Assembly (NCBI GenBank): GCA_900315995.1 | Contig: ONBF01000004.1 | Location: forward strand, 1-56,284 | Reading direction: 5' to 3' | Length of the DNA stretch: 56,284 bases | From: an uncultured Eubacteriales bacterium | Lineage (GTDB): Bacteria; Bacillota; Clostridia; Christensenellales; RUG350 | Shown here: in pieces, positions 4,100-50,999 of the stretch | How positions within the stretch are numbered: the stretch's first letter is position 1 | How the letters are laid out: each line of letters begins with the position of its first letter | Made by a program: the position numbers and the translations under genes | The notes under the pieces: model-generated | Database searches by the model: none | Told to the model about the DNA's origin: nothing | The model's input: the letters and a program-made list of their open reading frames with translations, nothing else

Positions 4100-4957
4100 T
4101 TGAAATTGTCAGAAACGACGAATAAAAAAATGAGCAGACGTAAGATATTCGTTATCGTATGGCTTTTGATAATCGCGCTCCTTCTTGTCGGAATAATCGT
4201 TTCGGGGACGCCGACTTCGCATACCGAAAGCGTCAAAGAAGTTATGCGCGACGGAGTTTTACACGATATTAACCAAATATCCGTATTCGGACTGCTTGTA
4301 AACCCCGCAATAATTTCCGCATATATCGTAACCGCTCTGCTTTTAACGGCGGCGGTTTTCGTACGTATATTTGCAATTCCGAGATTCAAGCGCGTGCCTG
4401 ATAAATTTCAATCGGTAATAGAGTGGATGGTCGGCTTTTTCTCGAATATGGCGGACAAAAATTCAAGTCATAAACCGCGTTTTGTCGGTGCATACATTTT
4501 CAGCGTGGGCGCATACGTTTTTTTCGGTACGCTGTTTGAACTCTTGGGCGTACAGTTTCCGACGACAAGCGAAAATACGATTTTACTTCCCGCGCCGTTA
4601 GCTGATATTAACGCCGCAATCGCGCTTGGCTTTACGTCATACTTAATAATACTGTTTGCGGGAATCATACGCGGTCCGCGTAAAACGCTCGGCGTTCTTA
4701 AAGATTTCTCCCTTCCGATTTCAATGAGTTTCCGACTGTTCGGCGCGCTATTGAGCGGACTACTCGTAAACGAACTCGTTTACTACTATTACGCATTGAG
4801 TTTCGTAGTACCTGTACTCGTAGGCGTACTGTTCACCCTGCTCCACGCACTTATTCAGACTTACGTTTTGGCAACACTTGTTTCGATATTCTACGGCGAA
4901 GCGGTCGAGCCGAGACCATATAAAAACAAAATCAAAAAAGAAGGTAATCGAATATGA
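4100..4957 (+). CDS. atpB: F0F1 ATP synthase subunit a
   Basis: Polytopic membrane protein with the a-subunit motif SMSFRLFGALLSG (essential Arg). First gene of the atp cluster. Start uncertain (TTG 4100, TTG 4106 or ATG 4130). Confidence 0.85.
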   Translation: MKLSETTNKKMSRRKIFVIVWLLIIALLLVGIIVSGTPTSHTESVKEVMRDGVLHDINQISVFGLLVNPAIISAYIVTALLLTAAVFVRIFAIPRFKRVPDKFQSVIEWMVGFFSNMADKNSSHKPRFVGAYIFSVGAYVFFGTLFELLGVQFPTTSENTILLPAPLADINAAIALGFTSYLIILFAGIIRGPRKTLGVLKDFSLPISMSFRLFGALLSGLLVNELVYYYYALSFVVPVLVGVLFTLLHALIQTYVLATLVSIFYGEAVEPRPYKNKIKKEGNRI

Positions 4958-5325
4958 AAAAGTTTATTTTACTGCTTGTTTTGGTACTCTCGTTCAGTAT
5001 GATTTTCTCGCTGAGCGTTACCGCTTATGCGGACGGCGAAGCAACGGAAACCGCTTCGGCTTCCGCTTCTGCGGAAGCCGAGAAGACCGAATCGGACAGC
5101 GTAAAGAGTTCCAAAGCCATTGCGGCTGCGATACTTATTGCCGCTGTCGGCGCGGCGGGTGCAATAGCCATGGCGATAACGATTGCAAAAGCCACGGGCG
5201 CGATGGCTCGTCAGCCCGAAGTTGCCGGACGGGTAAACTCCGCAATGATGCTCGGTCTCGTATTTATCGAGACGCTTGCAATCTACGCTCTTATCGTATC
5301 CATACTCATTATATTCGTACTGTAA
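4954..5325 (+). CDS. atpE: F0F1 ATP synthase subunit c with about 50-aa N-terminal signal-peptide-like extension
   Basis: The C-terminal ~70 aa form a c-subunit hairpin (loop ARQPE, carboxylate in VFIETLAIY). The ATG overlaps the atpB stop (ATGA). The N-terminus MKKFILLLVLVLSFSMIFSLSVTAYA is followed by an acidic Ala/Ser/Glu stretch. Confidence 0.85.
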   Translation: MKKFILLLVLVLSFSMIFSLSVTAYADGEATETASASASAEAEKTESDSVKSSKAIAAAILIAAVGAAGAIAMAITIAKATGAMARQPEVAGRVNSAMMLGLVFIETLAIYALIVSILIIFVL

Positions 5326-5343
5326 ACCGCAAGAGGTAACGTT

Positions 5344-5898
5344 ATGCCACCACTTAACATAGATATTACGCAAATACTCTTGCATGTATTGAATCTCGTA
5401 ATACTTGTCGGCGGTCTTACGCTTATTTTGTACAGACCCGTAACCGACTTTCTTCGCAAACGACGTGAAAGTTTCGCCGAAGAAGAACGCTTGAACGCAG
5501 AAACGAAAGCCGAAAACGAGCGTCTCAAAACCGAGTACGAAACCAAATTAAAGAGTGCGGACGAAGAAATCAAGGCGCGCCGTGCGGAAGCCGAACGGGA
5601 AATAGCCGACACCGCAAGTCGATATATGGACGATGCAAAGGTAAAGGCGGACGCTATAATCAAATCGGCTGAACAAGAAGCCGAAGCGCGTAAAGTACAC
5701 GTACTTGAATCGGCGCAAACCGAGATAGGCGAAATGGTGCTGTCCGCAACGCAAAAGTTACTTGCGGACTCGGCTTCCCCCGATAAAGATTTGAAATTGT
5801 ACGACGAATTTATAAAGCAGACCAAACGCCCCGCCGAAAAGGTTTCCAAAAGTTCCAAAAATTCCAAAGGTTCCAAAAGTTCCAAGGGTTCCAAATGA
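5344..5898 (+). CDS. atpF: F0F1 ATP synthase subunit b with (xSK)6 C-terminal tail
   Basis: Single N-terminal TM helix followed by a long charged helix (AEEERLNAE...AEQEAEARK). Position between c and alpha. Confidence 0.85.
   Translation: MPPLNIDITQILLHVLNLVILVGGLTLILYRPVTDFLRKRRESFAEEERLNAETKAENERLKTEYETKLKSADEEIKARRAEAEREIADTASRYMDDAKVKADAIIKSAEQEAEARKVHVLESAQTEIGEMVLSATQKLLADSASPDKDLKLYDEFIKQTKRPAEKVSKSSKNSKGSKSSKGSK
5842..5895 (+). repeat. Six tandem 9-bp units NNT-TCC-AAR encoding (x-S-K)6 at the end of atpF
   Basis: gtttccaaa agttccaaa aattccaaa ggttccaaa agttccaag ggttccaaa, read in the atpF frame. Confidence 0.9.
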
Positions 5899-7700
5899 GT
5901 GACGAAATAAAAAAAGTAGGTTTCGGCAAAAACGACGAAACCGCTCAAAAAGATAAACTCAAAGTCGAAATCGACTGCGTAACTCCCCCAAGCGTCACGC
6001 AGATTAAAAAGTTGCGCGAATATTTTGCCGAGTGCTATAACGAAGACGTTAAAAATATCGAATTTATAATAAAACGCGACCCGTCCGTTGTATCGGGTTT
6101 CAAAATCTTCGTCGGCGACGACAATTACGATTGGAGTGCGCTCGGTCGTATACGTCAGCTTCGCCGCTCTTTTCAATCGTTAAAACACAACGTTTCCGAA
6201 GACAAAATCATTTCTCTGCTCCGTGAAGACATCAAGTCGTTCAAACTCGATTCGGGGTATCAGCAAGTAGGTTTCGTCACTGCCGTAAACGACGGCATCG
6301 TACGCATTAAAGGGCTTACGGACGTGGAGTTCGGTGAAATCGTACTGTTTGAGTGCGGCGTAAAAGGTATGGTACAGGACATATCTTCGGACGGCACGTC
6401 GGGCGTCGTTTTGTTCGGCGACGAAACGGAAGTCGTTATGGAAATGAAAGTCCTTCGCACCAAGCGTACGGCAGGCATACCGATATCGAGCAAAATAATA
6501 GGTCGTATGATAGACCCGCTCGGACGCTCCTTAGACGGTAAAGGCGACGTCGGCGCGAAAGAGTATTTTCCCATCGAACGCCCCGCGCCGAAAATACTTG
6601 ACCGTCAACCCGTAAACAAACCTCTCGAAACGGGAATACTCGCGATTGATTCGATGTTCCCGATAGGTCGCGGTCAGCGTGAACTTATTATCGGCGACAG
6701 ACAAACGGGGAAAACATCCGTTGCACTCGACGCTATTCTCAATCAAAAAAACAAAAACGTTGTTTGCGTATACGTTGCGATAGGTCAACGCGCGGACGCA
6801 ATAGCGAAAGTTTACGATACGCTTAAAAAATACGGCGCGGACGAATACACCGTTATCGTAGCGTCAACGGCGAGCGATCCCGCTCCGCTTCAATACATTG
6901 CCCCGTACGCAGGTTGCGCCATAGCCGAGTACTTTATGTATCGCGGACGTGACGCGCTTATCGTTTACGACGACCTTTCGCGTCACGCGGTGGCATATCG
7001 GACTTTAAGTCTGTTGCTTGAACGTTCTCCCGGTCGCGAAGCGTATCCCGGCGATATTTTTTATCTTCACTCCCGACTTTTGGAGCGTTCGGCAAGACTA
7101 TCCGACGCGCTTGGCGGCGGAAGTATGACCGCGCTGCCTATCGTCGAAACTCAGGCGGGCGATGTTTCAGCATATATCCCGACAAATATCATTTCTATAA
7201 CCGACGGACAGATTTTTCTCGAAAGCGATTTGTTCTTTGCAGGTCAACGCCCTGCCGTCAATGTGGGACTTTCGGTGTCGCGCGTCGGCAACGCGGCTCA
7301 ATTCGAGATTATGAAAAAGTCGGTCGGCAGTATACGGCTCGACCTTGCGCAGTACCGTGAAATCAAAGTATTTTCACAATTCGGCGGCGAACTCGATTCC
7401 GCAACCGAACGTAAACTGCGCCACGGCGAAACTCTCACTATGCTTTTACGTCAAGACAAGTCATCCCCTATGAAACTGCACGAACAGGTATTGACGCTCA
7501 TTTGTGCCGACGCAGGCAAATTCAATGACGTCCCCATAAAAGAAGTCAAACGTTTTCAAAAAGATTTACTCGCATATTTTGAAAAAGAATTTCCGATCTT
7601 GTGTATACGCATAGATTACGGACACGAATTATACGACGGACTCAAATCTGCCGTTCTCAAAGTCGCCGACGCTTTTATAGCGGAAAACGTAAAGGTGTAA
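5895..7700 (+). CDS. atpA: F1 ATP synthase alpha subunit with N-terminal delta(OSCP) C-terminal-domain-like extension (delta'-alpha fusion)
   Basis: Residues ~100-601 are alpha (GDRQTGKT Walker A, and an N-terminal beta-barrel region VGFVTAVNDGIVRIKGL). Residues ~25-95 (VTPPSVTQIKKLREYF...DPSVVSGFKIFVGDDNYDWSALGRIRQLRRSF) match the delta C-terminal pattern. One uninterrupted 601-codon ORF whose ATG overlaps the atpF stop. Confidence 0.85.
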   Translation: MSDEIKKVGFGKNDETAQKDKLKVEIDCVTPPSVTQIKKLREYFAECYNEDVKNIEFIIKRDPSVVSGFKIFVGDDNYDWSALGRIRQLRRSFQSLKHNVSEDKIISLLREDIKSFKLDSGYQQVGFVTAVNDGIVRIKGLTDVEFGEIVLFECGVKGMVQDISSDGTSGVVLFGDETEVVMEMKVLRTKRTAGIPISSKIIGRMIDPLGRSLDGKGDVGAKEYFPIERPAPKILDRQPVNKPLETGILAIDSMFPIGRGQRELIIGDRQTGKTSVALDAILNQKNKNVVCVYVAIGQRADAIAKVYDTLKKYGADEYTVIVASTASDPAPLQYIAPYAGCAIAEYFMYRGRDALIVYDDLSRHAVAYRTLSLLLERSPGREAYPGDIFYLHSRLLERSARLSDALGGGSMTALPIVETQAGDVSAYIPTNIISITDGQIFLESDLFFAGQRPAVNVGLSVSRVGNAAQFEIMKKSVGSIRLDLAQYREIKVFSQFGGELDSATERKLRHGETLTMLLRQDKSSPMKLHEQVLTLICADAGKFNDVPIKEVKRFQKDLLAYFEKEFPILCIRIDYGHELYDGLKSAVLKVADAFIAENVKV

Positions 7701-7703
7701 AGT

Positions 7704-10420
<2,717 letters not shown>

Positions 10421-18178: not shown

Positions 18179-21100
18179 TTATAATGCTGCTTTCTTCTTT
18201 CTTTTCTTTACAAAGACGAATACCGCACTCGAAATCATTACCACTGCAACAACTCCAATCACTACTCCCCATACGGCGCTTATTGTAGGCGGTATACTCT
18301 TTTTGTAAGTAACTTCCAAGTCTATATCGGATGAAATCTTTTCGACTGTAAATGTATTGTTTTTTATTTCTACGATTTCACCGTTCACAAACACTTTATC
18401 GACTTCATAACCTTCTATCGGTGTAATTGTAAATGTTCTTGCTTCTCCGCCGTATATTTCGCTTGATTGTTGACTATATGAAACGTTTCCGTAATTACTG
18501 TCACCATTTATAGATACGCTGTACAAATCTTCGACAAAACTTGCTTTAATCGTATGTGACGATGTTACTTGATTTAATTTATATTCGGCAGTACCGTTTT
18601 CCAAAACAATCACTTTGCCGTCTATCATAGCTTCTTTCAGACGATAATGATACTCGGGTATAAATGTTATTGTCACACTTCCGTTATGTTTTACGGTTTC
18701 GTCGGAAACTCGAATTTCTCCGTGTTCACTGTTTTCTATGGTCAATGTATACGTGTTAACGGCAAATGTAACGGAAATACTGTGCTCTGCCGTAACGTTA
18801 TTAAACGTATATCCGTTTGTTATCGCGTTTTGCAGTTCGTCTCCCGTCAAAAGATTATTGTCTACTGTAATTGACGATACGTGATACATTTTGTTTGGCG
18901 TAAAAGTGAAAGTTTGACTGTTTCCTTCTTTCACCGAGATATTCCCCGATGGTGATATACTTCCGTTTACACCCGCGGTTGCTACGATATTATATGTGTT
19001 TATTGTAAATTCAACGGAAATACTGTGTTCTGCCGTAACGTTATTAAATTTATATCCGTTTGTTATTGCGTTTTGCAGTTCGTTTCCCGTCAAAAGATTA
19101 TTGTCTACTCTAATTGACGATACGTGATAACCTTCGTTTGATATAAATGTGAAAAGTTGGCTGTTTCCGTATTCCAATGTGATATTTCCCGACGGTGATA
19201 TACTTCCGTTTGCACCCGCGGTTGCCGTGATATTATATGTGTTAACGGCAAATGTAACGGAAATACTGTGTTCTGCCGTAACGTTATTAAACGTATATCC
19301 GTTTGTTATTGCGTCTTGCAATTCGTCTACCGTCAAAGCAATATTGTCTACCGAAATTGACGATATGTGATACCATTCGTTCGGGCTGAAAGAGAAAGAC
19401 ATACTGTTTCCTTCTTTCACCGAGATACTTCCCGACGGTGATATGCTTCCGTGCTCCCCCGCGGTTGCCGTGATATTATAAGCAACGCCGTTTATAATGA
19501 CTTCACAAATATCGGAAACAGCCTCATCTTCTATCCAGTCTTGAACTTTTACAAAATATTTGCGATTTACTTTGTTTGAAGTATCGGGGATGTAGGTTGA
19601 ATTTATTGCATTTTCTATAATAATCCCGCTTTCATACGTTCCGTCATCCGTGTAATACCATTGATACTTCAAATCAAAGCCTTGCGCTTCAATCGACAAA
19701 ATACACTCATCCGTTACTTGCACTTCAACGTTATTCGGTAAATTTATCACAAACGAAATATCAAGCGGAACGAAAGTGTTGCCATTGTTATCCGCATAAG
19801 TTTTGGCATAAGTCCCCGTGTATCCGTAAACGGTTATGTCTTTACCGATCGCATTGTCGGAACATGATGTCAAATTTCTACCGAAATAGATGTTCTTTAC
19901 GGAAACTCCATCAAAATTGGAATTTCCGATTTTTTCAATCTTCGGCAAATATATGGTTTTCGGAAGATTTATATAAGAACTAAAAACTAAATTCCCGATT
20001 TCTCTGACGTTTTCAAACGTAAAGGATGAGAGTTTTGAATCACAAATAAATACGTTTGTATCGATTATCTCCAATTTCGGCATATTCACGGTTTCAAGTG
20101 AATAGCAATTTTGAAACGACTGTGATCCGACAAATGTTACAACCGGCGCTTTAACATAAGAAAGCGTTTCGCAACCGCAAAATGCTTCGCGTTCTATATT
20201 AATAACGTTAGGCATAATTATTCCTGTTAAGAAGCAACAGTACTCAAACGCATCTTCCGCAATTCTCGTAACTTTTTTACCTTCAACTGTTTCAGGTAAT
20301 ATTATGTTACCCATAAGACAGCCATTTACGGAGTCTATGCAAATTTCCGTTTCCCCGGTTGCACTGTTGATAAAAGTGCTGTACTCAAATTGTTGTAACG
20401 TATTGTACAAGTACGCAAAAGTCACATGTTCATTGTTCGCATACGTCTTTGCAACCGTGTTTTCAAAACCGTATAAAACAAAATCCGCAATTACGCTTTC
20501 ATTATTATCATAACCAAATGCTTTTGAGCCAATCTCTATTACGTTTTCTGATAACTCAATGGATTTCAAGTTGTTACATCCGCAAAATGCTTTGTCGCCT
20601 ATCTCCGAAACATTAAAAATCTGTACAGACTTTAATGCGGAACAATTCTTAAACGCAGCCTCGCCGATTTTTTCGATATTTGTCAAATAAACGGACTCCA
20701 ATAATTGACATCCTTCAAATGCAGAATTTCCGATTTCTTTTAAGTAAATTACATTTAGGAATTTTATTCTTTTATTGCAGTTCTTAAATGCATTTGCCGA
20801 AATTTTTGTTACGGGTTTTCCTTCAATATATGAAGGAATAACGATTTCTCCATTGAGATACCAATCATAATAATCGTATCCGTTTATGCATATTTCATCG
20901 TTCTTTACAGAATAACGTAACGTTATATCAGAAGTCAAATTTTTACATACAAACGTTGCTTTTTTTGCAAATCCGCCGGTCTCTTCGGAAACATTACTTA
21001 AATATTCATTAATTGCAGGAGAATCATAATAATTAAATTCACAGTTTTCTTTGACATCTTCACCAAACTCATTGTCGATTTTTTCAAGACAACCTGACAA

Positions 21101-24028
21101 TGTAACCTTGCTTACAGCTATATTATAATGGAAAGCATTATGCTCAATTATCCTTACTTGCGGCAAATTAATTTCGGTAAGTGCTTTACAATATCTGAAT
21201 GCACTTTCACCGATATATTTCAGTTTCGGCGCATTAAGCGTCGTTATGGCGTAACAACAATCAAAAGCATATTCGCCAATATGCTCAAGTTCCGGAAAAT
21301 CAAGTGAAGTTAATTTATCCGAACTTTCAAACGAAGCATCCAAACCTGTTTCCCCGCCTATATATTTTACCTTCGGCATAGAAAGTCGTTCCAGATTTCT
21401 ACTATAATAAAATGAACCCGATCCGACAACCAACACTTCCGGCAAGTTTAATTCCGTCAGTTTTTTTGTCTCATAGAATGAAGTTGTTCCCAAATATTGT
21501 ACTTTCGGTAAACTGAGAGTTTCCAGATTTTCACTCGAATAGAACGCACTGTTACATATAACTTTTGCTTGCGGCAAGTTAATGGAAACCAAAAGATTAC
21601 TATTTCTAAATGCGTCTTTACCTATATTTTCAACAACAGGTAAATATATTGAGGATATATTTGTACATCCGCTGAACGCACTTTCATCGATTATTTTTAC
21701 TTTAGGAAGTGAAACGTACGTCAGATTCGCAGGACTGTTGTTGCGCATCATAAAAGCCCAATAACCGACTGTTTCTACATTATCAAGTTCAACATCGTGA
21801 AGACTTTTACAGTCCAAAAAGGCATATTTGTCGATCGTTTTCAATTTGGGAAAATATTCATTATTTACATACTCCAAATCAAAACAATTCTGAAACGCCC
21901 CCATCCCTACATATGTCACTTCCGGTGCGATAACGGTTTTCAAATTCATACAGCTGCGAAATGCTCTTAACTGAATTTCCGTAACCGTTGACGGCAACGT
22001 AACCGAAACAATACTCGGAGAAACAAAACAGCTGTCTCCAATCGATTTTACGGTAATTCCGTTAACGTTTTCGGGAACGACTACATTTTGAAGAACCCCG
22101 AGATAAGAAACGAGAGTTCCGTTCGCCTTTATAAGAAATGCATTTTCCACATCTTGTTCGCCAAAGTAATATGTTTTTGTTGCAACATTACTTTTTCCCG
22201 TCACTTCATTTGCCGAAATTTTATAAGCGCAAACGCTTATTTTCATAGTTCTGTCGATTGCTATCGGGCTTGTATAGAGAATTGAATTTCTCGTCGGCAA
22301 AGTTCCGTCCGTAGTGTAATAAATATGTACATCGGGCTCGGAACATGACAAAATCAGATCAAAACTTTCTTCACATTGACTTTCCGTTCGACTGAAAACA
22401 ACATCCGGAAGCTTGTCGAGAAAAATATCTTCAAGATTGACCAATCCTTCGCCATAAAAAATATCAAAACCCGAATCCCCCAAATCCAATACGCTTCCTT
22501 TAAGAACACTTTCAATCTGATTGATATTATAATTCTTACTACTGTCTGACATTAACAACGCGACTGCGGCGGCAACGTGCGGAGTCGCCATGGAAGTTCC
22601 GCTCATAGATACCGTTCCACCACCGACTTTTGCGCTGAGTATATCCGCACCGGGTGCGCACACGTCAACTAAATCACCGTAGTTTGACCAGCCGGCACGA
22701 AATAAATATGAACCTGTTTGACCGACAGCGGCAACAGTCAACGCAATATCAATATTTGCAGGAGACGAATACTGAGCGTCTTCACCTTCGTTACCGGCGG
22801 CAACAACGGACAAAACTCCTTTGTCCAGCGCAGTTTGCATTGCCGCTTTATACGCATTGTAATCATCGCTTTCGATATAATCCGATCCACTCAAACTCAT
22901 ATTGATAGCACAAATATTCAAACCTTTTTGTTTCAATTCCGCAACGTGATATATACCTGCAATAATTTGGGCGTCTTCACCTCGTCCTTTGTCGTTGAGA
23001 ACTTTAACCGGTAAAATTTTCACGTTGTTCAACGTTAAATCGCAAATCGTTCCGGAAACGTGCGTTCCATGCCCTTGTACGTCTTGATAATTATCAGGAT
23101 CATCAGGATTTGAAGAAGAAAAGTTTTTGCCACCTTCCGCAATTCTTCCGTTGAACCATGAATGATTTACATCGATACCGGTATCCAAAACCGCAACAAC
23201 AAGCTGCGGTAAATTATTTGTTCCTATTGTGTTTCGGAGATATTCGGAATAATTTGGCACACCCATTACACTTGCACCCCAGGTTTTATAAGAAAAGTCA
23301 TCGCCAAGTCCCGTTATTGTCACATTGTCGGTTGTTTCCGTCGCTCTCACAATACCATCGACTTGATAATAATCGATATTTGTAAGTTTACTGAAATATT
23401 CGCACGCTTTTATCGTATCTTCTTCGGTTGCGTATTGAAAAATATGTAATCCTTTATAGCCTTCCACACTTGCAATCGCATTGTAGCCGTCTATTTTTTC
23501 TCTTGACCCTACTATCACTCTCTTTGTCCCATATGGTCTGTTAAGCGTTACTTTATCATTGTCAAACTTCAATTCATATCCCAAACTGTTTGAAATCTCT
23601 TCAATAGGGAATAAAATATCGCCGTTTTCGATTTCAACGGGTGTTCTCAAACAAGAGTCCGATTCGTCGGCAAGAACAAAATTGCTGTCGGGACTGAGTT
23701 GTACTTTTTTATTCTCTTTTTCGATAACGTATTTGCCGTCTTCTTTTGAAATATAAGATCCCGTCATTTCTTTGAACGTTTCACCCTTAACCATCAAAAC
23801 GTTGTTTCTCTTTATGAGATCACCTTCCAAATCAAACGACGTTTCTTGCATTATGTATTCATCCTGATATTCTTCAATCATAGCGCAAAGTCGCGTTGAA
23901 AAATCTTCAAAATCAATATCGCTATTTTCTTTTGCAAAAGAATTATCGGGAATCGCGCAAATGCCGATTCCGAAACAAGTAAACAAAATCAATATAAAAA
24001 TCGTTATTATCTTAAAAGGCTTTTTCAT
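18179..24028 (-). CDS. Giant (1949 aa) surface protein: signal peptide, Cu-amine-oxidase-N-like domain, S8 subtilisin-like protease, BspA-type leucine-rich repeats, five ~81-aa InlB-B-repeat-like modules, C-terminal TM anchor
   Basis: Catalytic motifs VAVLDTGID / HGTHVSGT / SGTSMATPHVAAA. Many 'IG..AF..C..L..V.LP' LRR units. Repeat modules YNITATAG..GSISPSG. C-terminal VWGVVIGVVAVVMISSAVFVFV followed by KKRKKK. Confidence 0.9.
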   Translation of the reverse strand: MKKPFKIITIFILILFTCFGIGICAIPDNSFAKENSDIDFEDFSTRLCAMIEEYQDEYIMQETSFDLEGDLIKRNNVLMVKGETFKEMTGSYISKEDGKYVIEKENKKVQLSPDSNFVLADESDSCLRTPVEIENGDILFPIEEISNSLGYELKFDNDKVTLNRPYGTKRVIVGSREKIDGYNAIASVEGYKGLHIFQYATEEDTIKACEYFSKLTNIDYYQVDGIVRATETTDNVTITGLGDDFSYKTWGASVMGVPNYSEYLRNTIGTNNLPQLVVAVLDTGIDVNHSWFNGRIAEGGKNFSSSNPDDPDNYQDVQGHGTHVSGTICDLTLNNVKILPVKVLNDKGRGEDAQIIAGIYHVAELKQKGLNICAINMSLSGSDYIESDDYNAYKAAMQTALDKGVLSVVAAGNEGEDAQYSSPANIDIALTVAAVGQTGSYLFRAGWSNYGDLVDVCAPGADILSAKVGGGTVSMSGTSMATPHVAAAVALLMSDSSKNYNINQIESVLKGSVLDLGDSGFDIFYGEGLVNLEDIFLDKLPDVVFSRTESQCEESFDLILSCSEPDVHIYYTTDGTLPTRNSILYTSPIAIDRTMKISVCAYKISANEVTGKSNVATKTYYFGEQDVENAFLIKANGTLVSYLGVLQNVVVPENVNGITVKSIGDSCFVSPSIVSVTLPSTVTEIQLRAFRSCMNLKTVIAPEVTYVGMGAFQNCFDLEYVNNEYFPKLKTIDKYAFLDCKSLHDVELDNVETVGYWAFMMRNNSPANLTYVSLPKVKIIDESAFSGCTNISSIYLPVVENIGKDAFRNSNLLVSINLPQAKVICNSAFYSSENLETLSLPKVQYLGTTSFYETKKLTELNLPEVLVVGSGSFYYSRNLERLSMPKVKYIGGETGLDASFESSDKLTSLDFPELEHIGEYAFDCCYAITTLNAPKLKYIGESAFRYCKALTEINLPQVRIIEHNAFHYNIAVSKVTLSGCLEKIDNEFGEDVKENCEFNYYDSPAINEYLSNVSEETGGFAKKATFVCKNLTSDITLRYSVKNDEICINGYDYYDWYLNGEIVIPSYIEGKPVTKISANAFKNCNKRIKFLNVIYLKEIGNSAFEGCQLLESVYLTNIEKIGEAAFKNCSALKSVQIFNVSEIGDKAFCGCNNLKSIELSENVIEIGSKAFGYDNNESVIADFVLYGFENTVAKTYANNEHVTFAYLYNTLQQFEYSTFINSATGETEICIDSVNGCLMGNIILPETVEGKKVTRIAEDAFEYCCFLTGIIMPNVINIEREAFCGCETLSYVKAPVVTFVGSQSFQNCYSLETVNMPKLEIIDTNVFICDSKLSSFTFENVREIGNLVFSSYINLPKTIYLPKIEKIGNSNFDGVSVKNIYFGRNLTSCSDNAIGKDITVYGYTGTYAKTYADNNGNTFVPLDISFVINLPNNVEVQVTDECILSIEAQGFDLKYQWYYTDDGTYESGIIIENAINSTYIPDTSNKVNRKYFVKVQDWIEDEAVSDICEVIINGVAYNITATAGEHGSISPSGSISVKEGNSMSFSFSPNEWYHISSISVDNIALTVDELQDAITNGYTFNNVTAEHSISVTFAVNTYNITATAGANGSISPSGNITLEYGNSQLFTFISNEGYHVSSIRVDNNLLTGNELQNAITNGYKFNNVTAEHSISVEFTINTYNIVATAGVNGSISPSGNISVKEGNSQTFTFTPNKMYHVSSITVDNNLLTGDELQNAITNGYTFNNVTAEHSISVTFAVNTYTLTIENSEHGEIRVSDETVKHNGSVTITFIPEYHYRLKEAMIDGKVIVLENGTAEYKLNQVTSSHTIKASFVEDLYSVSINGDSNYGNVSYSQQSSEIYGGEARTFTITPIEGYEVDKVFVNGEIVEIKNNTFTVEKISSDIDLEVTYKKSIPPTISAVWGVVIGVVAVVMISSAVFVFVKKRKKKAAL
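18752..19480 (-). repeat. Three tandem 243-bp (81-codon) coding repeats inside the giant gene
   Basis: Unit boundaries at 19480, 19237, 18994 and 18752. Units are roughly 80-85 percent identical by eye. Two more diverged modules follow, toward 18300. Confidence 0.9.
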
Positions 24029-30950: not shown

Positions 30951-31772
30951 GTGTTTCGGAATATGCTTGAAAATGTGCGAAAGAATTGCCCGCTTATTCA
31001 TAATATTACCAACTATGTAACGGTAAACGACTGTGCAAACATATTGCTTGCCTGCGGCGCGTCTCCGATTATGGCTGACGACAAAGAAGAAGTTGCGGAA
31101 ATCACCGCAATCTGTTCCGGTTTGAATATTAACATCGGTACGCTTAACAATCGCACGATTGAATCTATGCTGATTGCCGGCAAACGAGCTAACGACCTGA
31201 ACCATCCGATTGTATTGGATCCCGTAGGATGCGGTGCGTCCAAACTTCGAACGGAAACGGCTATGAAACTTATCAAAGAAATAAAATTCACCGTTATCCG
31301 CGGCAATATCTCGGAAATCAAAACCTTGGCTTTCGGTAGCGGAACAACAAAAGGCGTTGACGCCGATATAGCCGATAAAATAACAGAAGAAAATCTTGAT
31401 AACGTTATTGATTTCGCAAAAGCTTTTGCTGAAAAAACAGGAGCGATTATTGCCATCACCGGCGCTATCGACATCATAACCGATAACCGAAAAACCTACT
31501 GCGTCCGCAACGGTCATCCTATGATGTCTTCCGTTACGGGAACGGGATGTCAGCTTTCCGCTATGACTGCGGCTTTTGTAGCGGCTAATAGCGAACACGC
31601 TTCGGAAGCTGTGGCGGCGGCGGTTTCCGCTATGGGTTATGCCGGTGAAACGGCTTACAAAAGACTTACAAAAACGGACGGTAACTCTACTTACGGAAAT
31701 TATATAATAGACGCGATTTACAATATGACTCCTGAAATGCTGGAAAAAGGCGCAAACTATGAAGTGCGATAA
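30951..31772 (+). CDS. thiM: Hydroxyethylthiazole kinase
   Basis: PLIHNITNYVTVNDCANILLACGASPIMA..., VLDPVG, GTGC. GTG start 6 nt after aggag. Confidence 0.92.
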   Translation: MFRNMLENVRKNCPLIHNITNYVTVNDCANILLACGASPIMADDKEEVAEITAICSGLNINIGTLNNRTIESMLIAGKRANDLNHPIVLDPVGCGASKLRTETAMKLIKEIKFTVIRGNISEIKTLAFGSGTTKGVDADIADKITEENLDNVIDFAKAFAEKTGAIIAITGAIDIITDNRKTYCVRNGHPMMSSVTGTGCQLSAMTAAFVAANSEHASEAVAAAVSAMGYAGETAYKRLTKTDGNSTYGNYIIDAIYNMTPEMLEKGANYEVR

Positions 31773-32336
31773 AAAAACAATGTTACTCTACGCTGTCACC
31801 GACAGATCGTGGGTAGGAAAACAAAGTTTATATGAACAGGTTGAGTCCGCTCTGAAAGGCGGCGTTACTTGCGTTCAACTTCGTGAAAAAAATTTGGACA
31901 ATGCGGCTTTTCTCAATGAAGCCATTGAGATTTCCGCCCTATGCAAGCGATATAAGGTACCTTTTATGACATGGACGCCGCACAAATTCGCCGAATAGTC
32001 GGAGACGATATGATTATCGGCGTTTCGGTACACTCCGTCAAAGAAGCTTTGGAAGCAGTCAAAAACGGTGCGGACTGTCTTGGCGTCGGAGCCGTCTTCC
32101 CCACTTCCACGAAAACAGATGTAAACGTCATCCCGAAAGAAACGCTTCGCGATATTTGCTCCGCCGTGCATATTCCGATTGTCGCCATAGGCGGAATCAA
32201 TAAATCAAATATATCCCGACTTGCGGGTATCGGCGTGGACGGTGTGGCTTTGGTCAGCGCGATTTTCGCAGCCGACGACATCGAAAACGAATGTAAACTG
32301 CTTCGCAAACTGTCGGAAGAAACGGTGAACGCATGA
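31759..32336 (+). pseudogene. thiE: Thiamine-phosphate synthase, disrupted by an internal deletion with frameshift
   Basis: The N-terminal part (LLYAVTDR...VQLREK...CKRYKVPF) stops at 31996-31998. The C-terminal part (DMDAAQIRRIVGDDMIIGVSVH...IVAIGGI...GVALVSAIF) is in another frame. The ~21-22 aa between them (IxND...ADG[VI]H[LIV]GQ) are absent. Confidence 0.8.
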
Positions 32337-32995
32337 AAGTAAAGTGTGCAATCTTTGATTTTGACGGAACACTTTTTAATTCTATGTCAATTTGGGACAG
32401 CGTCGGTGAAATATATCTTCGTTCCGTCAAAAAAGTGCCGAAACCGTCAATGCGTGAAGATGTACGAGCGTTGAGCCTTTATCAGTCTGCTTGCTATTTT
32501 AAGCAAGAATATAACCTGTCTTTTTCCATAGAGAAAATTATGACGGATATCAATCGGACTATCGAACATTTTTATATCCGCGAGATTTTACCGAAACCTG
32601 GTGTGATTGATTTTCTGAAACAAATGAAAAAGGCTGAGATTCCGATGTGTATCACTTCGGCGTCTGCCCGCTACCTAATAGAAGCCGCTTTGAACAGATG
32701 TGAAATGAAACATTATTTTGAAGATATCTTCACTTGCGACGAAGTCGGTCACGGTAAAGACGAGCCGTTTATCTTTCAAAAGGCTATGGCGCATTTCGGT
32801 GCCGATCGCAGTTCCGCCATTGTTTTTGAAGACGCTCTCTATGCAATTCGGACTGCGAAAGCCGACGGCTTTACGGTAGTGGCGGTATTCGATGAGAGTG
32901 AAAAACGCCAAAGCGAAATCAGTGAAACAGTTGACTTCCGTATTGCGAATTTTGAACATACCGAGAAGTTTTGGAAGTTTGTTTCGGCTGAATAA
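32333..32995 (+). CDS. HAD-superfamily hydrolase (candidate thiamine monophosphate phosphatase)
   Basis: Motif I AIFDFDGTLF, motif II ITSAS, C-terminal FEDA. Embedded in the thi operon. Confidence 0.8.
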   Translation: MKVKCAIFDFDGTLFNSMSIWDSVGEIYLRSVKKVPKPSMREDVRALSLYQSACYFKQEYNLSFSIEKIMTDINRTIEHFYIREILPKPGVIDFLKQMKKAEIPMCITSASARYLIEAALNRCEMKHYFEDIFTCDEVGHGKDEPFIFQKAMAHFGADRSSAIVFEDALYAIRTAKADGFTVVAVFDESEKRQSEISETVDFRIANFEHTEKFWKFVSAE

Positions 32996-33074
32996 GCCGA
33001 AAACTTCATACAGTGGATTAAGGCGCAACTTTATGCCACCATATAAAACAATGTTTATTAAGGAGAACAAAACA

Positions 33075-33890
33075 ATGAAGTTAAAAACAGTATTGACAAT
33101 CGCCGGAAGCGATTGCAGCGGAGGCGCAGGTATTCAAGCCGATTTGAAAACAATGACTATGAACGGCGTTTACGGCATGAGCGCGATCACTGCGCTCACG
33201 GCGCAAAACACAATCGGCGTGAGCGCAATTCAAGAATCAACGCCCGACTTTTTGAGACAGCAAATTGATTCGATATTCGAGGACATTTATCCCGATGCTG
33301 TTAAAATCGGTATGGTATCTTCCTGCGAACTGATACGCGTAATTGCGGATAGATTGAAATATTACAATGCAAACAATATTGTTGTCGACCCGGTTATGAT
33401 TGCGACTTCGGGTTCGGCTTTAATGAAAAATGACGCGGTAAAAACACTTATTGAAGAATTACTGCCCGTTTCCGCTCTTGTCACCCCCAATATCCCCGAA
33501 GCACAAATTCTCTCCGAACTGACTATTGAAACCAAAGATGATATGATTGCCGCGACAAAACAAATCGGAGACAACTATCATTGTGCGGTTCTTCTCAAAG
33601 GCGGTCATAACATAAACGATGCAAACGATCTGCTTTATGCAAACGGCGAACTGATTTGGTTTGAAGGAAAACGCATAAATAATCCCAACACCCATGGCAC
33701 CGGATGCACACTTTCAAGTGCCATCGCATCCAATCTTGCCAAAGGATTTTCTCTCACAAAGTCCGTTCAAAGAGCAAAAGATTATATCTCCGATGCTTTG
33801 GCGGCAATGCTTGATTTGGGGAAAGGTTCGGGACCGATTAATCACGCGTTTAATCTGCAAGGAGAATATGCAAAGGAGGCAACGAAATGA
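33075..33890 (+). CDS. thiD: Hydroxymethylpyrimidine / phosphomethylpyrimidine kinase
   Basis: VLTIAGSDCSGGAGIQADLKT, VVDPVM, GTGCTLSSAIA. ATG at 33075 after aaggag (the ORF track start at 32892 is too far upstream). Confidence 0.93.
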   Translation: MKLKTVLTIAGSDCSGGAGIQADLKTMTMNGVYGMSAITALTAQNTIGVSAIQESTPDFLRQQIDSIFEDIYPDAVKIGMVSSCELIRVIADRLKYYNANNIVVDPVMIATSGSALMKNDAVKTLIEELLPVSALVTPNIPEAQILSELTIETKDDMIAATKQIGDNYHCAVLLKGGHNINDANDLLYANGELIWFEGKRINNPNTHGTGCTLSSAIASNLAKGFSLTKSVQRAKDYISDALAAMLDLGKGSGPINHAFNLQGEYAKEATK

Positions 33891-34546
33891 GTACTGTGGA
33901 AAGACTGCTTTCCGCTACAACGGAAATTTGGGAAGCGTACAACGCGCATCCGTTTGTTTCGGGTATTAAAAACGGTACTTTGGACAAAGAGAAATTTCGC
34001 TATTATATTATCCAAGATTATCTCTATCTTGAAGAATATGCAAAAACATTTGCAATAGGTATTGCCAAAGCCAAAAGCCTAAAAACAGAAAATCTCTTTG
34101 CAAAGTATATTTCCGTTATTAACGGAGAACTTAACGTTCACAACGGTTATCTTGCAAAACTTCGGGTGACACAAGAAGAAATCGATTCCACACCGCGTTC
34201 TCTTGATAACTTATCCTATACATCATATATGCTCCGTGTGGCATACGAAGAAGGTGAAGCGGAAATCCTTACGGCAATTCTCTCATGTGCATACAGTTAT
34301 GAGATTATCGCAAAGAATATTGTGAAAAACAACCCCGAATCCATAAACGACGAATTTTACGGAGATTGGATTAAAGGCTACTCTTCAAATACTTATGCCG
34401 AGGAAAACATAATTCTTTTGAACGAAATTAATCGGCTGACCGATAGATATACCGAAAAACAGATTAAGCATCTCGTTGATATATTCGTTATCTGCTCCCG
34501 TTACGAGCTTGCTTTTTGGGAAATGTCTTGGAGAATGAGCAAATGA
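33887..34546 (+). CDS. tenA: Thiaminase II / aminopyrimidine aminohydrolase
   Basis: HPFV.GI.NGTL....F.YYI.QDY.YL pattern. Operon context. Confidence 0.88.
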   Translation: MSTVERLLSATTEIWEAYNAHPFVSGIKNGTLDKEKFRYYIIQDYLYLEEYAKTFAIGIAKAKSLKTENLFAKYISVINGELNVHNGYLAKLRVTQEEIDSTPRSLDNLSYTSYMLRVAYEEGEAEILTAILSCAYSYEIIAKNIVKNNPESINDEFYGDWIKGYSSNTYAEENIILLNEINRLTDRYTEKQIKHLVDIFVICSRYELAFWEMSWRMSK

Positions 34547-35169
34547 CGAAGCGTTGTGTAATTGTAGGCGGTGCGGATATAAATAATTATGACTTTATTC
34601 GTAAAATACTGCGTGACGACGACTATGTGATTTTTTGCGACAGCGGTTTGAAGCATATGGAAAATTTGCAAGTACGTCCGAGTTTGATTGTCGGTGATTT
34701 CGATTCCCATGAAAATCCGCACATCGATGTTGAAACCATAGTCCTTCCACGCGAAAAGGATGACACCGATACCGTCTATGCCGTAAAAGAAGCCGTACGC
34801 AGAGAATTCGATAACTTTCTTTTAATCGGAGTTATCGGGGCAAGACTTGACCACTCACTCGGAAATGTGTCTGTTTTACTGTATCTTGATTCCATCGGTA
34901 AGAAAGGTTTCATAATAGACGATTATTCCGAAATGGAGATTGTTTCCGACAAAACGGTTTCCATCGGCGATCAATATGCTTTCTTTTCTCTGATAAATAT
35001 AACCGGCTGTGCAAAAGGCATCACCGTCACGGGAGCAAAGTATCCGTTGGACAATGCGGAAATTTCGTGCGAATACCAGTACGGAGTAAGCAATGAAGTT
35101 TTACCCGATAAAACGGCTACCGTAGCTGTTGCAAACGGAAAACTGCTTTTGATAAAAATTCTCAAATAA
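34543..35169 (+). CDS. thiN: Thiamine diphosphokinase (TPK)
   Basis: VIVGGADI...FCDSG...PSLIVGDFDS...KDDTD...GARLDHSLGN. The ATG overlaps the tenA stop (ATGA). Confidence 0.88.
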   Translation: MTKRCVIVGGADINNYDFIRKILRDDDYVIFCDSGLKHMENLQVRPSLIVGDFDSHENPHIDVETIVLPREKDDTDTVYAVKEAVRREFDNFLLIGVIGARLDHSLGNVSVLLYLDSIGKKGFIIDDYSEMEIVSDKTVSIGDQYAFFSLINITGCAKGITVTGAKYPLDNAEISCEYQYGVSNEVLPDKTATVAVANGKLLLIKILK

Positions 35170-42445: not shown

Positions 42446-43552
42446 TCACCCTTGTACTCTTACCGGTAAAATTAGATATAAATAGTTTTCGTTTTCTATC
42501 GGCGTTATTACGCAAGGCGTTTTACTGTTGTTGAAACTGAGTTTAATATATTCGTCTTCTATCGCTCCCATACAGTCGGTTAAATATTTTACGTTAAACG
42601 CTATTTGTAATTCTTGTCCCGTAAACTTAACGGGTAACTTTTCGTCTATATTACCTTCTTCGGAATCTGACAGTACGGTTAAAACTTTTTCTTTTATATC
42701 GAGTTTAATAAGATTGTTTTTACCTATTCTCGAAATAACCGACGCACGTTCCAGACACTCGTTAAACTGTTCTTTTCCGATTATTACTTCCGTTAAGAAA
42801 GATACGGGAATAATGTTTTTGTACGCTATATATTCGCCGTCTATAAGCTGTGTCGTTATTCTTGTATTTTTTATTTCCGTCATTATGAAATTATTTTGAA
42901 TATATACCGTAACGAGTTCGTTATCTTCGTCGAGTATTTTCTTTATTTCATTAAGACTGCGGGAAGGAATAATAAGTTTTTTGTTATCTATATTATTACA
43001 TTCAAGCGATTTGACAGACATTGCAAGACGATAACCGTCAAGCGCGACAACTGTCAATGCGTTATCGTTAAGTTCAAACAAACAACCTTTCAAAATCATT
43101 CTCGAATCGTCCTGAGCAACCGAAAAAGCAGTTTTTACAATCAAATCTTTAAGATCCTTTTGAAATAAACTGAAAGACAACGTATTATCAACAACTCTCG
43201 TTGCGGGATACTCTTCTTTCGGCAGACACGCAAATTCACATTTACTGTCGCCGTATTTTACTTTCAGTCGATCTGTCGCCGTTGCGTCGAGTTCAACTTG
43301 TTCGTTGGAAAGTTTTTTGATAAAATCGGTAAATATTTTACCGGCAACGACTGCTTCGCCTTCTATTTTGATATTCGCTTTTATTTTCTTTTCTATCGTA
43401 AGTTCGAGATCCGTCGCGGTTATTTTCAATTCGTCACCGTAAGCTTCGAGTTTAATACCTTCAAGAATAGAAATGTTTTTTCTTTGAGGTAAAGCCGCAA
43501 TTACCGTAAATACTGCGTCCGATAAATCTGTTCCTGAACAAAAAAGTTTCAT
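42446..43552 (-). CDS. dnaN: DNA polymerase III beta sliding clamp
   Basis: 368 aa. MKLFCSGTDLSDAV...LEGIKLEA...ATDLE pattern. SD gggaaggggg before ATG 43552. Immediately downstream of dnaA. Confidence 0.92.
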   Translation of the reverse strand: MKLFCSGTDLSDAVFTVIAALPQRKNISILEGIKLEAYGDELKITATDLELTIEKKIKANIKIEGEAVVAGKIFTDFIKKLSNEQVELDATATDRLKVKYGDSKCEFACLPKEEYPATRVVDNTLSFSLFQKDLKDLIVKTAFSVAQDDSRMILKGCLFELNDNALTVVALDGYRLAMSVKSLECNNIDNKKLIIPSRSLNEIKKILDEDNELVTVYIQNNFIMTEIKNTRITTQLIDGEYIAYKNIIPVSFLTEVIIGKEQFNECLERASVISRIGKNNLIKLDIKEKVLTVLSDSEEGNIDEKLPVKFTGQELQIAFNVKYLTDCMGAIEDEYIKLSFNNSKTPCVITPIENENYLYLILPVRVQG

Positions 43553-43597
43553 TTTGCCCCCTTCCCTTAACTTTAATTTTTTTATTAGGAATAACAA

Positions 43598-43749
43598 TAT
43601 TAATAAGTATTGTGGATAATGTTAATAAGTCAAAATAACACATTATATTGTTACAGACATAAAACATTATACTATATATTGTTATTTTTATTAACATTAA
43701 AATGTGAATAAACTGTTATTTTATTGTTAATAATCAAAAGTTATCCACA
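43598..43749. other. Candidate oriC segment (dnaA-dnaN intergenic) with DnaA boxes and an AT-rich unwinding region
   Basis: Perfect boxes TGTGGATAA (43611-43619) and TTATCCACA (43741-43749). One-mismatch box TGTGAATAA (43703-43711). The interval is very AT-rich by eye. Confidence 0.75.
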
Positions 43750-45117
43750 TCAGTTTTTAACAATCATTTTATATAGATCGGATACTTCTCTTTTTACGAT
43801 GTTATTCGTATCTATAAGATTTGATATTTTGTCTTTTGCGTAAAGTATCGTAGTATGATCTTTTCCGCCGAAGTATCCGCCTATCGTGTTAAGCGGTAAA
43901 CCTAAAATTTCGTATATCAAATACATACATATTTGTCTCGGTTCGACTATCTCTTTATTTTTCTTTTTACCGCACAAATCACTCTTTAAGATATTAAAAT
44001 AACTGCAAGTAACGTCTATTATGTAATTTGCGTCCACAACGTTGCTTTTATTGTCAACGTAATCTTTTAACGCGTCGTACGCAACGTCTAATGAAGTAGC
44101 GGGTTTTCCTATTAAGTTAGCGTAAAAAATAACTTTGGTTAAAAGACCTTCCATTTCTCTTATATTGCTTTCTACTTTTTCCGCGATAAACCTTAATACT
44201 TCGGGACTTACCTGCGCCGCATGATCTACTATTGCTTTCTTTTGAAGAATAGCGACTCTCGTTTCGAGATCGGGCGGCACTATGTTTGCAATAAGTCCCC
44301 ACTCAAAACGCGTACGCAATCTCTCTTCGAGCGGAGAAATTTCTTTTGGTGGTCTGTCCGATGTTAAGATAATTTGTTTACCGTTTTGAAATAAATCGTT
44401 GAAAATATGAAAAAGTACTTCCTGAGTTCCCGTACGACCTGCCAAAAACTGTATATCGTCTATCATAAGAATATCGACGTTACGGTATTTTTCTCTGAAA
44501 TTTGTATTAACGTCTTTATCCTTATTGCCTTTAACCATAGAATCGACAAGTTCATTGGTAAGATTATTTGACGGGGTGTAAAGTATTTTTAAGTCCGATT
44601 TATGTTGTTTGATATAATTGCCTATTGCGTGCATTAAGTGAGTTTTACCGAGTCCGACTCCGCCGTATATAAGTAAAGGATTATGTTTTGTACCCGGATT
44701 TTCCGCAACTGCTTGTGCTGCGGCAAACGCAAATTTATTTGACGAGCCGACAACGAAATTATCAAACGTATATTTAGCGGTAAAAGCGGGAGCTTTGAGT
44801 TTATTTTCAAGATAAAGTTTTTCGTCGGCGATATTTTCGTCTTGAAGTTTAATATATTTTTCTTTTTCGCTTTCCTCAATAATAAGTGCGTGAGATAATA
44901 ACGAATTTGACTCTTTGACAGCGGTATCGATAAGAGTTTGATAATTTTTATTAACCATTTTTTTGGCGGACTGTGATGCCGCCAAGAGTACGAGCGCGCC
45001 GTCTTTCGTAACGCAAACGGGTTCAAGATTTTTAATCCAAACCTCGTAACTTACCGTTATCATTTGTGCCGAAAGCTTATCCGATACGTCCGACCAGAGT
45101 TTATCTATATCAAGCAT
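43750..45117 (-). CDS. dnaA: Chromosomal replication initiator protein DnaA
   Basis: Walker A GGVGLGKTHL, IDDIQF, and a C-terminal DNA-binding domain (HTTILYAKDKI). Confidence 0.96.
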   Translation of the reverse strand: MLDIDKLWSDVSDKLSAQMITVSYEVWIKNLEPVCVTKDGALVLLAASQSAKKMVNKNYQTLIDTAVKESNSLLSHALIIEESEKEKYIKLQDENIADEKLYLENKLKAPAFTAKYTFDNFVVGSSNKFAFAAAQAVAENPGTKHNPLLIYGGVGLGKTHLMHAIGNYIKQHKSDLKILYTPSNNLTNELVDSMVKGNKDKDVNTNFREKYRNVDILMIDDIQFLAGRTGTQEVLFHIFNDLFQNGKQIILTSDRPPKEISPLEERLRTRFEWGLIANIVPPDLETRVAILQKKAIVDHAAQVSPEVLRFIAEKVESNIREMEGLLTKVIFYANLIGKPATSLDVAYDALKDYVDNKSNVVDANYIIDVTCSYFNILKSDLCGKKKNKEIVEPRQICMYLIYEILGLPLNTIGGYFGGKDHTTILYAKDKISNLIDTNNIVKREVSDLYKMIVKN

Positions 45118-50990: not shown

Positions 50991-50999
50991 GGAGTGAAA

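Follow-up and report, generated by a model that had tools for sequence, protein, structure and literature searches.

An ATP synthase operon on a contig of an uncultured Eubacteriales bacterium (ONBF01000004.1) was found to encode, in a single 601-aa open reading frame (ORF), the C-terminal domain (CTD) of the delta subunit joined in frame to a complete alpha subunit, with no coding sequence for delta's N-terminal domain on the contig. The window, meaning the whole stretch of DNA analysed, is this entire contig of 56,284 bp, and the search of this genome for companion genes covered this contig. The fused delta-CTD::alpha architecture itself is very nearly certain. By every sequence feature compared, the ORF belongs with the fusions of alpha to a delta lacking its N-domain ("deltaDeltaN-alpha") reported by Ueno et al. 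(Nat Commun 2025; PMC12229609). From the analogy with that engineered enzyme, we consider it fairly probable that the natural fusion gives the ATP synthase several b2 peripheral stalks and a subunits and a raised ion/ATP ratio.

In-frame fusion of the delta C-terminal domain to alpha

The atp operon reads a-c-b-[delta-CTD::alpha]-gamma-beta-epsilon on the + strand. This is the canonical F-type order, and the fused ORF occupies the position expected from a-c-b-(delta)-alpha-gamma-beta-epsilon, both here and in 80 related loci. An earlier annotation of the same DNA (hereafter, the sequence-only reading) had listed this gene order, and each gene indeed matched the Pfam family expected of it.

Residues 17–92 of the fused ORF matched the Pfam OSCP family (PF00213) at profile positions 98–171 of 172, i.e., in its C-terminal half only. 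Residues 1–102 searched alone scored 30.3 bits (E 5.3e-7) against a gathering cut-off of 22.3. The NCBIfam delta models matched solely via their C-terminal ends and scored under their full-length cut-offs (TIGR01145: 28.7 bits vs. 57.5). In a sequence search of the PDB, residues 116–175 of Bacillus PS3 delta and residues 14–72 of 9jc1_I (chain I of PDB 9JC1) aligned to the delta domain. Given this domain identity, a role in docking the b2 stalk would be expected.

The remainder of the ORF matched the atpA equivalog TIGR00962 at 688.5 bits (cut-off 484.45), with residues 101–597 covering model positions 3–500 of 503. Judged by this match, residues 101–597 are a complete alpha subunit, composed of the beta-barrel crown (approximately residues 121–195), the nucleotide-binding domain (247–462) and the C-terminal helical domain (469–594). 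In the alpha N-terminal helix (IISLL...F), I105, L108 and F116 were invariant.

An AlphaFold2 model of residues 1–200, based on a 60-sequence alignment (mean pLDDT 78.6), placed the delta domain first, followed by the alpha N-terminal helix (H102–114) and the barrel. The delta domain was modelled at a pLDDT of ca. 85 with the secondary structure E22–28, H34–48, E55–61, E69–73, E76–79 and H82–94, and the linker between the two parts at a pLDDT of 63–71. A full-length model from a shallow alignment was poor (pLDDT 54.6) and was left out of the fold search. The profile matches, the PDB alignments and the predicted fold bear out the sequence-only reading, which had assigned the first ca. 100 residues to the delta/OSCP CTD, had quoted sequence strings that proved exact, and had described the in-frame run into alpha with neither a stop nor a start.

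Delta does not occur here as a separate one-copy polypeptide; it lies in frame with alpha, with no stop and no conserved start between them. In the window, no in-frame ATG, GTG or TTG was found from after residue 1 to about V144 of the fused ORF. When 74 orthologues were aligned by codon, the columns lying between the delta domain and Met159, an invariant residue of the barrel, held no conserved start codon. An internal alpha start was rejected for this lack of a conserved ATG, GTG or TTG ahead of the structural Met159, in line with the earlier statement that no separate alpha start is visible near the junction. The ATG of the fusion overlaps the stop codon of atpF (ATGA at 5895–5898), the usual layout for translational coupling. 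Because there is one translation start, at this overlap, every alpha would carry a docking domain. The copy number of the delta-CTD per complex is thus expected to be three, as the sequence-only reading had anticipated from the in-frame fusion.

Absence of the delta N-terminal domain

Just ca. 20 non-conserved residues precede the delta-CTD, and the ORF contains no delta N-domain of any length. A hidden Markov model (HMM) of the delta N-terminal domain (NTD) was built from the nearest Clostridia deltas and recovered its positive controls at E ~1e-30. Neither in the window nor in the 80 related loci, each searched in six frames, did it give any match at E ≤ 10. Pfam scans of 40 other ORFs in the window found no delta, and no stand-alone delta gene was present in the operon, in the 56-kb contig or in the flanks of the 80 loci. 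A delta N-domain hidden elsewhere in the window was rejected on the basis of the Pfam scans and the NTD HMM, and subunit b is too short to hide one. The suggestion that the delta N-terminal bundle has no coding sequence therefore held for both the window and the operon flanks.

Conservation and purifying selection

When one genome was scanned for each GTDB species, the same delta-CTD/alpha junction turned up in 102 stretches, so that the search for the OSCP and alpha architecture in related genomes proposed in the sequence-only reading yielded ca. 102 species genomes. The loci of 80 of these were read. Their carriers were without exception uncultured Clostridia of the gut or rumen, under the labels Ruminococcus sp., Oscillospiraceae, Acutalibacteraceae, Eubacteriales or "Clostridium sp. 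CAG:138". The gene order a-c-b-fusion-gamma-beta-epsilon was kept in all 80 loci (the shorter ones end at contig edges), and the fused ORF was uninterrupted, at 589–631 aa, in 74 of the 75 complete loci. The best 120 homologues in a 5.8-billion-protein collection were all 576–610 aa in length and combined PF00213 with the alpha domains. Where named, they were plain "F0F1 ATP synthase subunit alpha", and one of them was present on 376 contigs.

The delta-CTD contained residues that were invariant across 43 sequences. Nonsynonymous to synonymous substitution ratios (dN/dS; Nei–Gojobori, 252 pairs) are rough values, as synonymous sites were near saturation. The delta domain gave 0.18, the alpha N-terminal helix 0.17 and the remaining parts of alpha 0.16–0.17; the ratios of the 20-residue N-terminal tail and of the linker were 0.34 and 0.33. 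Purifying selection on the delta part is as strong as on alpha.

These results bear on the explanation that the fusion is an artefact or a decaying gene, with a stop and start lost by assembly error or with a non-functional remnant of delta ahead of alpha. Frameshifts do occur in a few related records, namely locus L026 and, in another lineage, L081 and L083. Nevertheless, the same uninterrupted junction was found in ca. 100 independent species genomes and thousands of metagenome proteins, which excludes the assembly error that the sequence-only reading had raised as a possible cause. A pseudogene is effectively refuted by the invariant delta-CTD residues and the low dN/dS, and we assign this explanation hardly any probability. 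In L026 (5809–7781; a Clostridium sp. CAG:138 scaffold), the fused ORF breaks after 309 aa and alpha resumes in another frame. It is the lone interrupted copy among the 75 complete loci and is probably due to a sequencing error in an early metagenome-assembled genome (MAG).

Correspondence with the engineered PS3 fusion

The design of Ueno et al. started from the argument that the delta N-domain sits on the pseudo-three-fold axis of alpha3beta3, which limits the enzyme to one peripheral stalk (PMC12229609). In their Bacillus PS3 deltaDeltaN-alpha fused FoF1 (PDB 9JC1), the delta N-domain was deleted and delta residues 105–178 were joined to the alpha N-terminus; the fusion was used since the CTD without the N-domain has no known hold on F1. 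The resulting enzyme carried b2 stalks and a subunits in numbers of up to three each, every stalk being accompanied by a, and its a and b stoichiometries were 2.2 and 1.8 times those of the wild type. The H+/ATP ratio was 5.8 ± 0.4 compared with 3.0 ± 0.2 in the wild type, and the equilibrium proton motive force (pmf) was halved (PMC12229609).

When the N-terminal 102 residues of the window ORF were searched against the PDB, the two top matches were Bacillus PS3 delta and 9JC1 chain I, the molecule name of which reads "ATP synthase delta subunit, ATP synthase subunit alpha". A profile of the natural family aligned collinearly with 9jc1_I (E 1.8e-20) over the delta-CTD, the linker and alpha; the alignment is interrupted once, by a gap of one residue, at the point where the natural "SL-KHNVSED" faces the engineered "G-GSGGSIRAE". 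The full-length profile scored 670.8 bits on 9jc1_I and 645.8 bits on wild-type PS3 alpha, a gain of 25 bits. In a Foldseek comparison of the residues 1–200 model with the PDB, the best three matches were chains I, J and K of 9JC1 (TMq 0.60–0.65 over 168–177 columns), whereas ordinary alpha subunits reached a TMq of 0.33–0.41.

Both proteins hold a delta-CTD, a short linker and the alpha N-terminus in one chain, with the delta N-domain gone and the domain spacing equal to within one residue, and in both enzymes the a, b, c, gamma, beta and epsilon subunits are ordinary. In contrast to the window ORF, 9JC1 is an artificial construct whose linker is GGSGG and whose epsilon is truncated, and the identity between the two is ca. 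26–28% over the aligned N-terminal 170 residues. The c subunit of the window also has a signal-peptide-like extension, which PS3 c does not. Stalk number and H+/ATP ratio were measured for 9JC1, whereas for the window enzyme, known here from its genes alone, we infer them by analogy, together with the number of a subunits and the physiological benefit.

The linker is also where a different outcome of the fusion might be sought. Its proteolysis, or non-canonical internal initiation, could yield two products from the one ORF, namely a mini-delta released as the bare CTD and an alpha of normal form. The linker (residues 96–104) is among the least constrained segments of the protein and was modelled with lower confidence, as such cleavage would allow. 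However, its length is within one residue of that in the functional engineered fusion, no start codon is conserved from the delta domain to Met159 in the 74 orthologues, and a free CTD without its N-domain would have no known hold on F1. Two separate products are thus improbable, and the intact fusion remains the preferred form.

The sequence-only reading knew of no description of such an architecture. This part of it did not stand, as the architecture had been engineered by Ueno et al. and natural examples were named in the same paper. Its Discussion and Supplementary Fig. 9 describe a natural delta–alpha fusion in Acidaminococcus fermentans (UniProt D2RLW6), to which G4Q3K6 and A0A1I2C5T3 look similar. 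The authors predict a multi-stalk enzyme capable of working at low pmf for the Acidaminococcus fusion, and state that a natural multi-stalk enzyme "awaits further experimental verification" (PMC12229609). Compared by published description only, the A. fermentans and window proteins are alike in that delta and alpha are fused within the atp operon and the N-domain is missing. They differ in that A. fermentans is a cultured Acidaminococcus and the window clade consists of uncultured gut and rumen Clostridia MAGs. None of the homologue matches bore the name Acidaminococcus. In the literature searched, the delta–alpha fusion was described only in PMC12229609 and in its citation in PMC12002316; no later paper on a natural fusion enzyme was found, and the ProAD survey of rotary ATPases is silent on the fusion. 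The architecture and its proposed meaning are thus already published, and the window is part of a large clade that had so far gone unremarked; it does not represent a new class of system.

Proposed mechanism and number of stalks

Because the engineered PS3 enzyme has the same design, our preferred reading of the natural fusion is a multi-stalk enzyme with a raised ion/ATP ratio. From the single translation start at the ATG overlapping the b stop, a docking domain would be placed on every alpha, and F1 would offer three equivalent b2 sites. The loss of the delta N-domain would free the three-fold axis of alpha3beta3 that holds ordinary enzymes to one stalk. More than one b2 stalk could then be bound per complex, each holding its own a subunit against the c-ring. 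As the number of ions per turn would equal N_c × N_a, the ion/ATP ratio would be higher and less membrane potential would be needed for ATP synthesis; running in reverse, the enzyme would move more ions for each ATP but could do so only against a smaller gradient. This low gearing might suit energy-limited gut and rumen fermenters. The three docking domains, which had appeared as a puzzle in the sequence-only reading, are in the engineered enzyme the feature that allows several stalks.

Several points weigh against this reading. Among the cryo-EM particles of the engineered enzyme, those with 0, 1, 2 and 3 stalks accounted for 15, 51, 26 and 8%, and its ATP-driven proton pumping was below that of the wild type (PMC12229609). 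Since the engineered particles had mostly zero or one stalk and pumping was reduced, several stalks are neither guaranteed nor cost-free. Natural fusion enzymes are known at the level of their sequences. The search for delta covered the 56-kb contig, and an atpH, a second atpA or another rotary ATPase is possible elsewhere in the genome. Furthermore, related lineages keep a full delta fused to alpha; delta can therefore be fused without giving up its N-domain, and the benefit of the fusion may lie in stability instead of in the number of stalks.

Some of these points lead to a single-stalk enzyme, in which the fusion would be a covalent tether replacing the grip of the N-domain. One delta-CTD would bind b2 and a, the other two would be idle, and the stoichiometry and ion/ATP ratio would be ordinary. 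Half of the engineered particles did have one stalk, the lineages with a full-length delta::alpha suggest that the fusion may first have been selected for assembly or stability, and the a, b and c subunits of the window gave ordinary Pfam matches with no feature tied to several a subunits. On the other hand, wild-type a, b and c sufficed for ca. two stalks on average, judged by biochemistry, in the engineered enzyme; no special adaptation is therefore needed, and nothing obvious bars extra stalks. Moreover, the N-domain was lost in the whole window clade and, on a weak tree, apparently repeatedly elsewhere, which fits selection for free docking sites. We regard a single-stalk enzyme, the main rival reading, as rather unlikely, and the multi-stalk enzyme as the more probable of the two.

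Variants of the fusion and their evolution

A profile of the delta-CTD and alpha N-terminal helix was run against 1.84 billion cluster representatives and matched 699 clusters at E ≤ 1e-3, with 154 at E ≤ 1e-10. The sequences read among these were of four kinds: N-domain-less fusions, full delta::alpha fusions, free deltas, and free deltas with tandem C-domains. N-domain-less fusions also occurred outside the window clade, under labels such as Christensenellales, Lachnospiraceae and Eubacterium sp. A full delta, with an N-domain of ca. 90 aa, preceded alpha in P0155, P0211 and P0422/L081 (labelled Oscillospiraceae or Ruminococcus sp.). Ordinary free deltas sharing an "EYDWS" motif were also among the profile matches.

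The three loci with full delta::alpha fusions (L081, 8001–10020; L082, 1571–3590; L083, 2035–4057) had no separate delta gene, and in each of them the reading frame of alpha was broken close to where the barrel ends. The break is common to L081 and L082; a programmed frameshift was considered for them and rejected, as the break looks like a one-base indel instead. In L083, the gamma and a genes were also split, which makes an assembly error likely.

Two groups of free deltas had a normal N-domain followed by more than one C-terminal b2-docking domain. In P0216 (364 aa; Clostridium argentinense/C. faecium) there were three in tandem, and in P0229/P0291 (255 aa; Ruminococcus sp. MAG) there were two. 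No description of such tandem-C-domain deltas was found. They could represent another natural route to several stalk-binding sites per F1. Of five apparently stand-alone "deltaDeltaN" proteins of ca. 115 aa, the two that were compared with full-length delta proved to be 5'-truncated or mis-started ordinary deltas. An apparent family of "mini" proteins retrieved with short N-terminal queries consisted of fragmentary matches, and those on long contigs ended in frameshift junk.

In a neighbour-joining tree of the shared ca. 150 residues, a short region for which no support values were computed, the window clade was monophyletic and wholly N-domain-less, and elsewhere full and N-domain-less fusions were interleaved. 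This interleaving suggests that delta was joined to alpha before the N-domain disappeared, and that the disappearance took place on more than one occasion. A more far-reaching scenario, which we offer tentatively and hold somewhat short of probable, is that the native F-type ATP synthase of the clade is a multi-stator enzyme, in which two to three b2 stalks and two to three a subunits surround one c-ring and ca. two to three times the usual number of ions is moved per ATP. In this scenario, delta would have been fused first, the N-domain would then have been lost repeatedly under selection for operation at low pmf, and the c subunit may have been remodelled.

Comparison with other rotary ATPases

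In mycobacteria, a free stator subunit is likewise joined to its operon neighbour, in the b–delta fusion AtpFH, which keeps the full delta and is present once per complex. The fusion partner there is b, whereas here it is alpha. Solved complexes such as 7JG5 were among the PDB matches of the full-length profile. A b–delta fusion of this type was ruled out for the window, because b has 184 aa, matches only PF00430 (at residues 11–140) and ends in a Lys/Ser-rich tail.

V/A-type ATPases have two or three EG peripheral stalks, each seated on the N-terminal region of a non-catalytic B subunit. They resemble the enzyme proposed here, whose stalk number is itself part of the proposal, in that several stalks would attach separately around the head with the three-fold axis on top left free. 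They differ in their subunits, in their non-covalent docking and in having a single membrane a/I subunit, whereas several a subunits are proposed here. An N-ATPase, an alternate F1Fo that lacks delta and has the gene order beta-epsilon-X-X-a-c-b-alpha-gamma, was ruled out by the canonical F-type order of the operon; the N-ATPase model TIGR03324 scored 576 bits, under its cut-off of 750.5.

A natural F-type enzyme with an altered delta has been described from Chloroflexus aurantiacus, in which a dimer of deltas with shortened N-domains provides two stalks and two a subunits, each delta C-domain docking one stalk (PMC12002316, where V/A-type ATPases are also contrasted). In Chloroflexus, delta is a separate subunit, and its shortened four-helix N-domain dimerises atop F1, giving exactly two stalks. 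In contrast, the window protein has no N-domain at all, and its three docking domains would be covalently attached. A two-stalk F1Fo of the Chloroflexus type was ruled out, as the window encodes no free delta with a shortened N-domain. The closest counterpart in the PDB remains the engineered PS3 fusion.

Implications for energy conversion in gut and rumen Clostridia

To our knowledge, the view held before 2025 gave all F-type ATP synthases a single stalk and a single a subunit, with an H+/ATP ratio set by c-ring size alone. Two papers of that year, on the engineered PS3 fusion and the two-stalk Chloroflexus enzyme, shifted this view. The present analysis adds the breadth of the natural fusion, the purifying selection on it, its near-identical spacing to the engineered construct, and two sorts of related variant, in which a full delta is fused to alpha or a delta has two or three C-domains. 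If the natural fusion acts like the engineered one, ca. a hundred species of abundant gut and rumen anaerobes would use a different gearing of their energy converter, and the figures assumed for their ATP yield, and for the membrane potential that they need or can build, would have to be revised. Databases list the fused proteins as "subunit alpha"; delta would be scored as absent by automated pathway calls. For experiments, the cultured Acidaminococcus offers a better handle than the uncultured genomes.

The other subunits of the operon

The coordinates of the operon genes and of the segments of the fused ORF are given in Table 1. The start codon of atpB is uncertain, the longest ORF opening at TTG 4100, and the gene was kept at the same position in all loci that extend far enough upstream of the fusion.

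Table 1. ATP synthase genes and segments of the fused ORF in the window
Feature	Position	Strand	Evidence and remarks
atpB, Fo subunit a	4100..4957	+	PF00119 ATP-synt_A, E 1.4e-17
atpE, Fo subunit c, 123 aa	4954..5325	+	PF00137 at residues 56–119
atpF, subunit b, 184 aa	5344..5898	+	PF00430 at residues 11–140, sole family matched
Fused gene deltaDeltaN::atpA, single 601-aa ORF	5895..7700	+	PF00213 and alpha domains
Variable N-terminal tail, residues 1–20	5895..5954	+	pLDDT <50; dN/dS 0.34; poorly conserved; no delta-NTD HMM match
Delta/OSCP C-terminal domain (putative b2-docking domain), residues 21–95	5955..6179	+	PF00213; four strands and two helices
Linker LKHNVSEDK, residues 96–104	6180..6206	+	Aligns with engineered GGSGG linker and first alpha residues of 9jc1_I; variable
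Alpha N-terminal helix region, residues 105–120, IISLLREDIKSF...	6207..6254	+	Aligns to alpha ~5–20 of solved F1 structures
Alpha core	6255..7676	+	PF00006, E 3e-81; PF00306, E 3.6e-35; TIGR00962; ~700 bits to solved alpha subunits
atpG, subunit gamma	7704..8588	+	PF00231, E 2.1e-79
atpD, subunit beta	8590..9999	+	PF00006, PF02874, PF22919
atpC, subunit epsilon	9992..10420	+	PF02823, PF00401

Subunit c has a signal-peptide-like N-terminal extension (residues 1 to ca. 26), after which an acidic Ala/Thr/Glu-rich linker precedes helix 1. The pattern is MKK, a hydrophobic stretch and A-x-A, followed by an acidic segment of 25–40 residues. The extension was present in those c genes of the clade that were read, and the c subunits of the full-delta::alpha lineage (L081, L083) were 72–75 aa long and without it. 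A cleaved signal peptide on subunit c is known from Aquifex aeolicus. If Fo was remodelled as in the multi-stator scenario, the clade-wide c subunit with its signal-peptide-like start may have been remodelled with it. The ion site of c reads VFIET.IIY, and in helix 1 a Met stands where Na+-binding c subunits have a Gln; these residues do not settle the coupling ion.

Subunit b has a membrane helix plus a coiled coil and lacks any domain resembling delta. Its Lys/Ser-rich, low-complexity tail (window 5840–5895, + strand; KVSKSSKNSKGSKSSKGSK) was not conserved in related loci, where matches to b ended at residues 158–184. An antisense ORF of 297 aa (5283–6176, − strand) lies opposite atpF and the start of the fusion; it is without support and is most likely a chance open frame.

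Other features of the contig

The genes dnaN and dnaA lie adjacent at 42446–45117 (− strand), which makes the intergenic stretch just above 45.1 kb the probable site of the chromosomal replication origin; the atp operon would then be ca. 35–41 kb away from it. A 1949-aa protein encoded at 18179–24028 (− strand) combines a subtilase domain (Peptidase_S8) and six blocks of BspA-type leucine-rich repeats with chitobiase C-terminal/Fn3-associated modules and a copper-amine-oxidase N-terminal-like domain, and is probably a large cell-surface protease or adhesin. A cluster for thiamine salvage and biosynthesis at 30951–35169 (+ strand) encodes hydroxyethylthiazole kinase, thiamine monophosphate (TMP) synthase, a haloacid dehalogenase (HAD) hydrolase, hydroxymethylpyrimidine phosphate (HMP-P) kinase, TenA and thiamine pyrophosphokinase. 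The TMP synthase ORF has 121 aa and matched only the C-terminal part of its family, and it may be truncated or mis-started. Finally, spoIIR, a SleB-like cell-wall hydrolase gene and ypeB at 49771–52301 (+ strand) indicate an endospore-forming organism.

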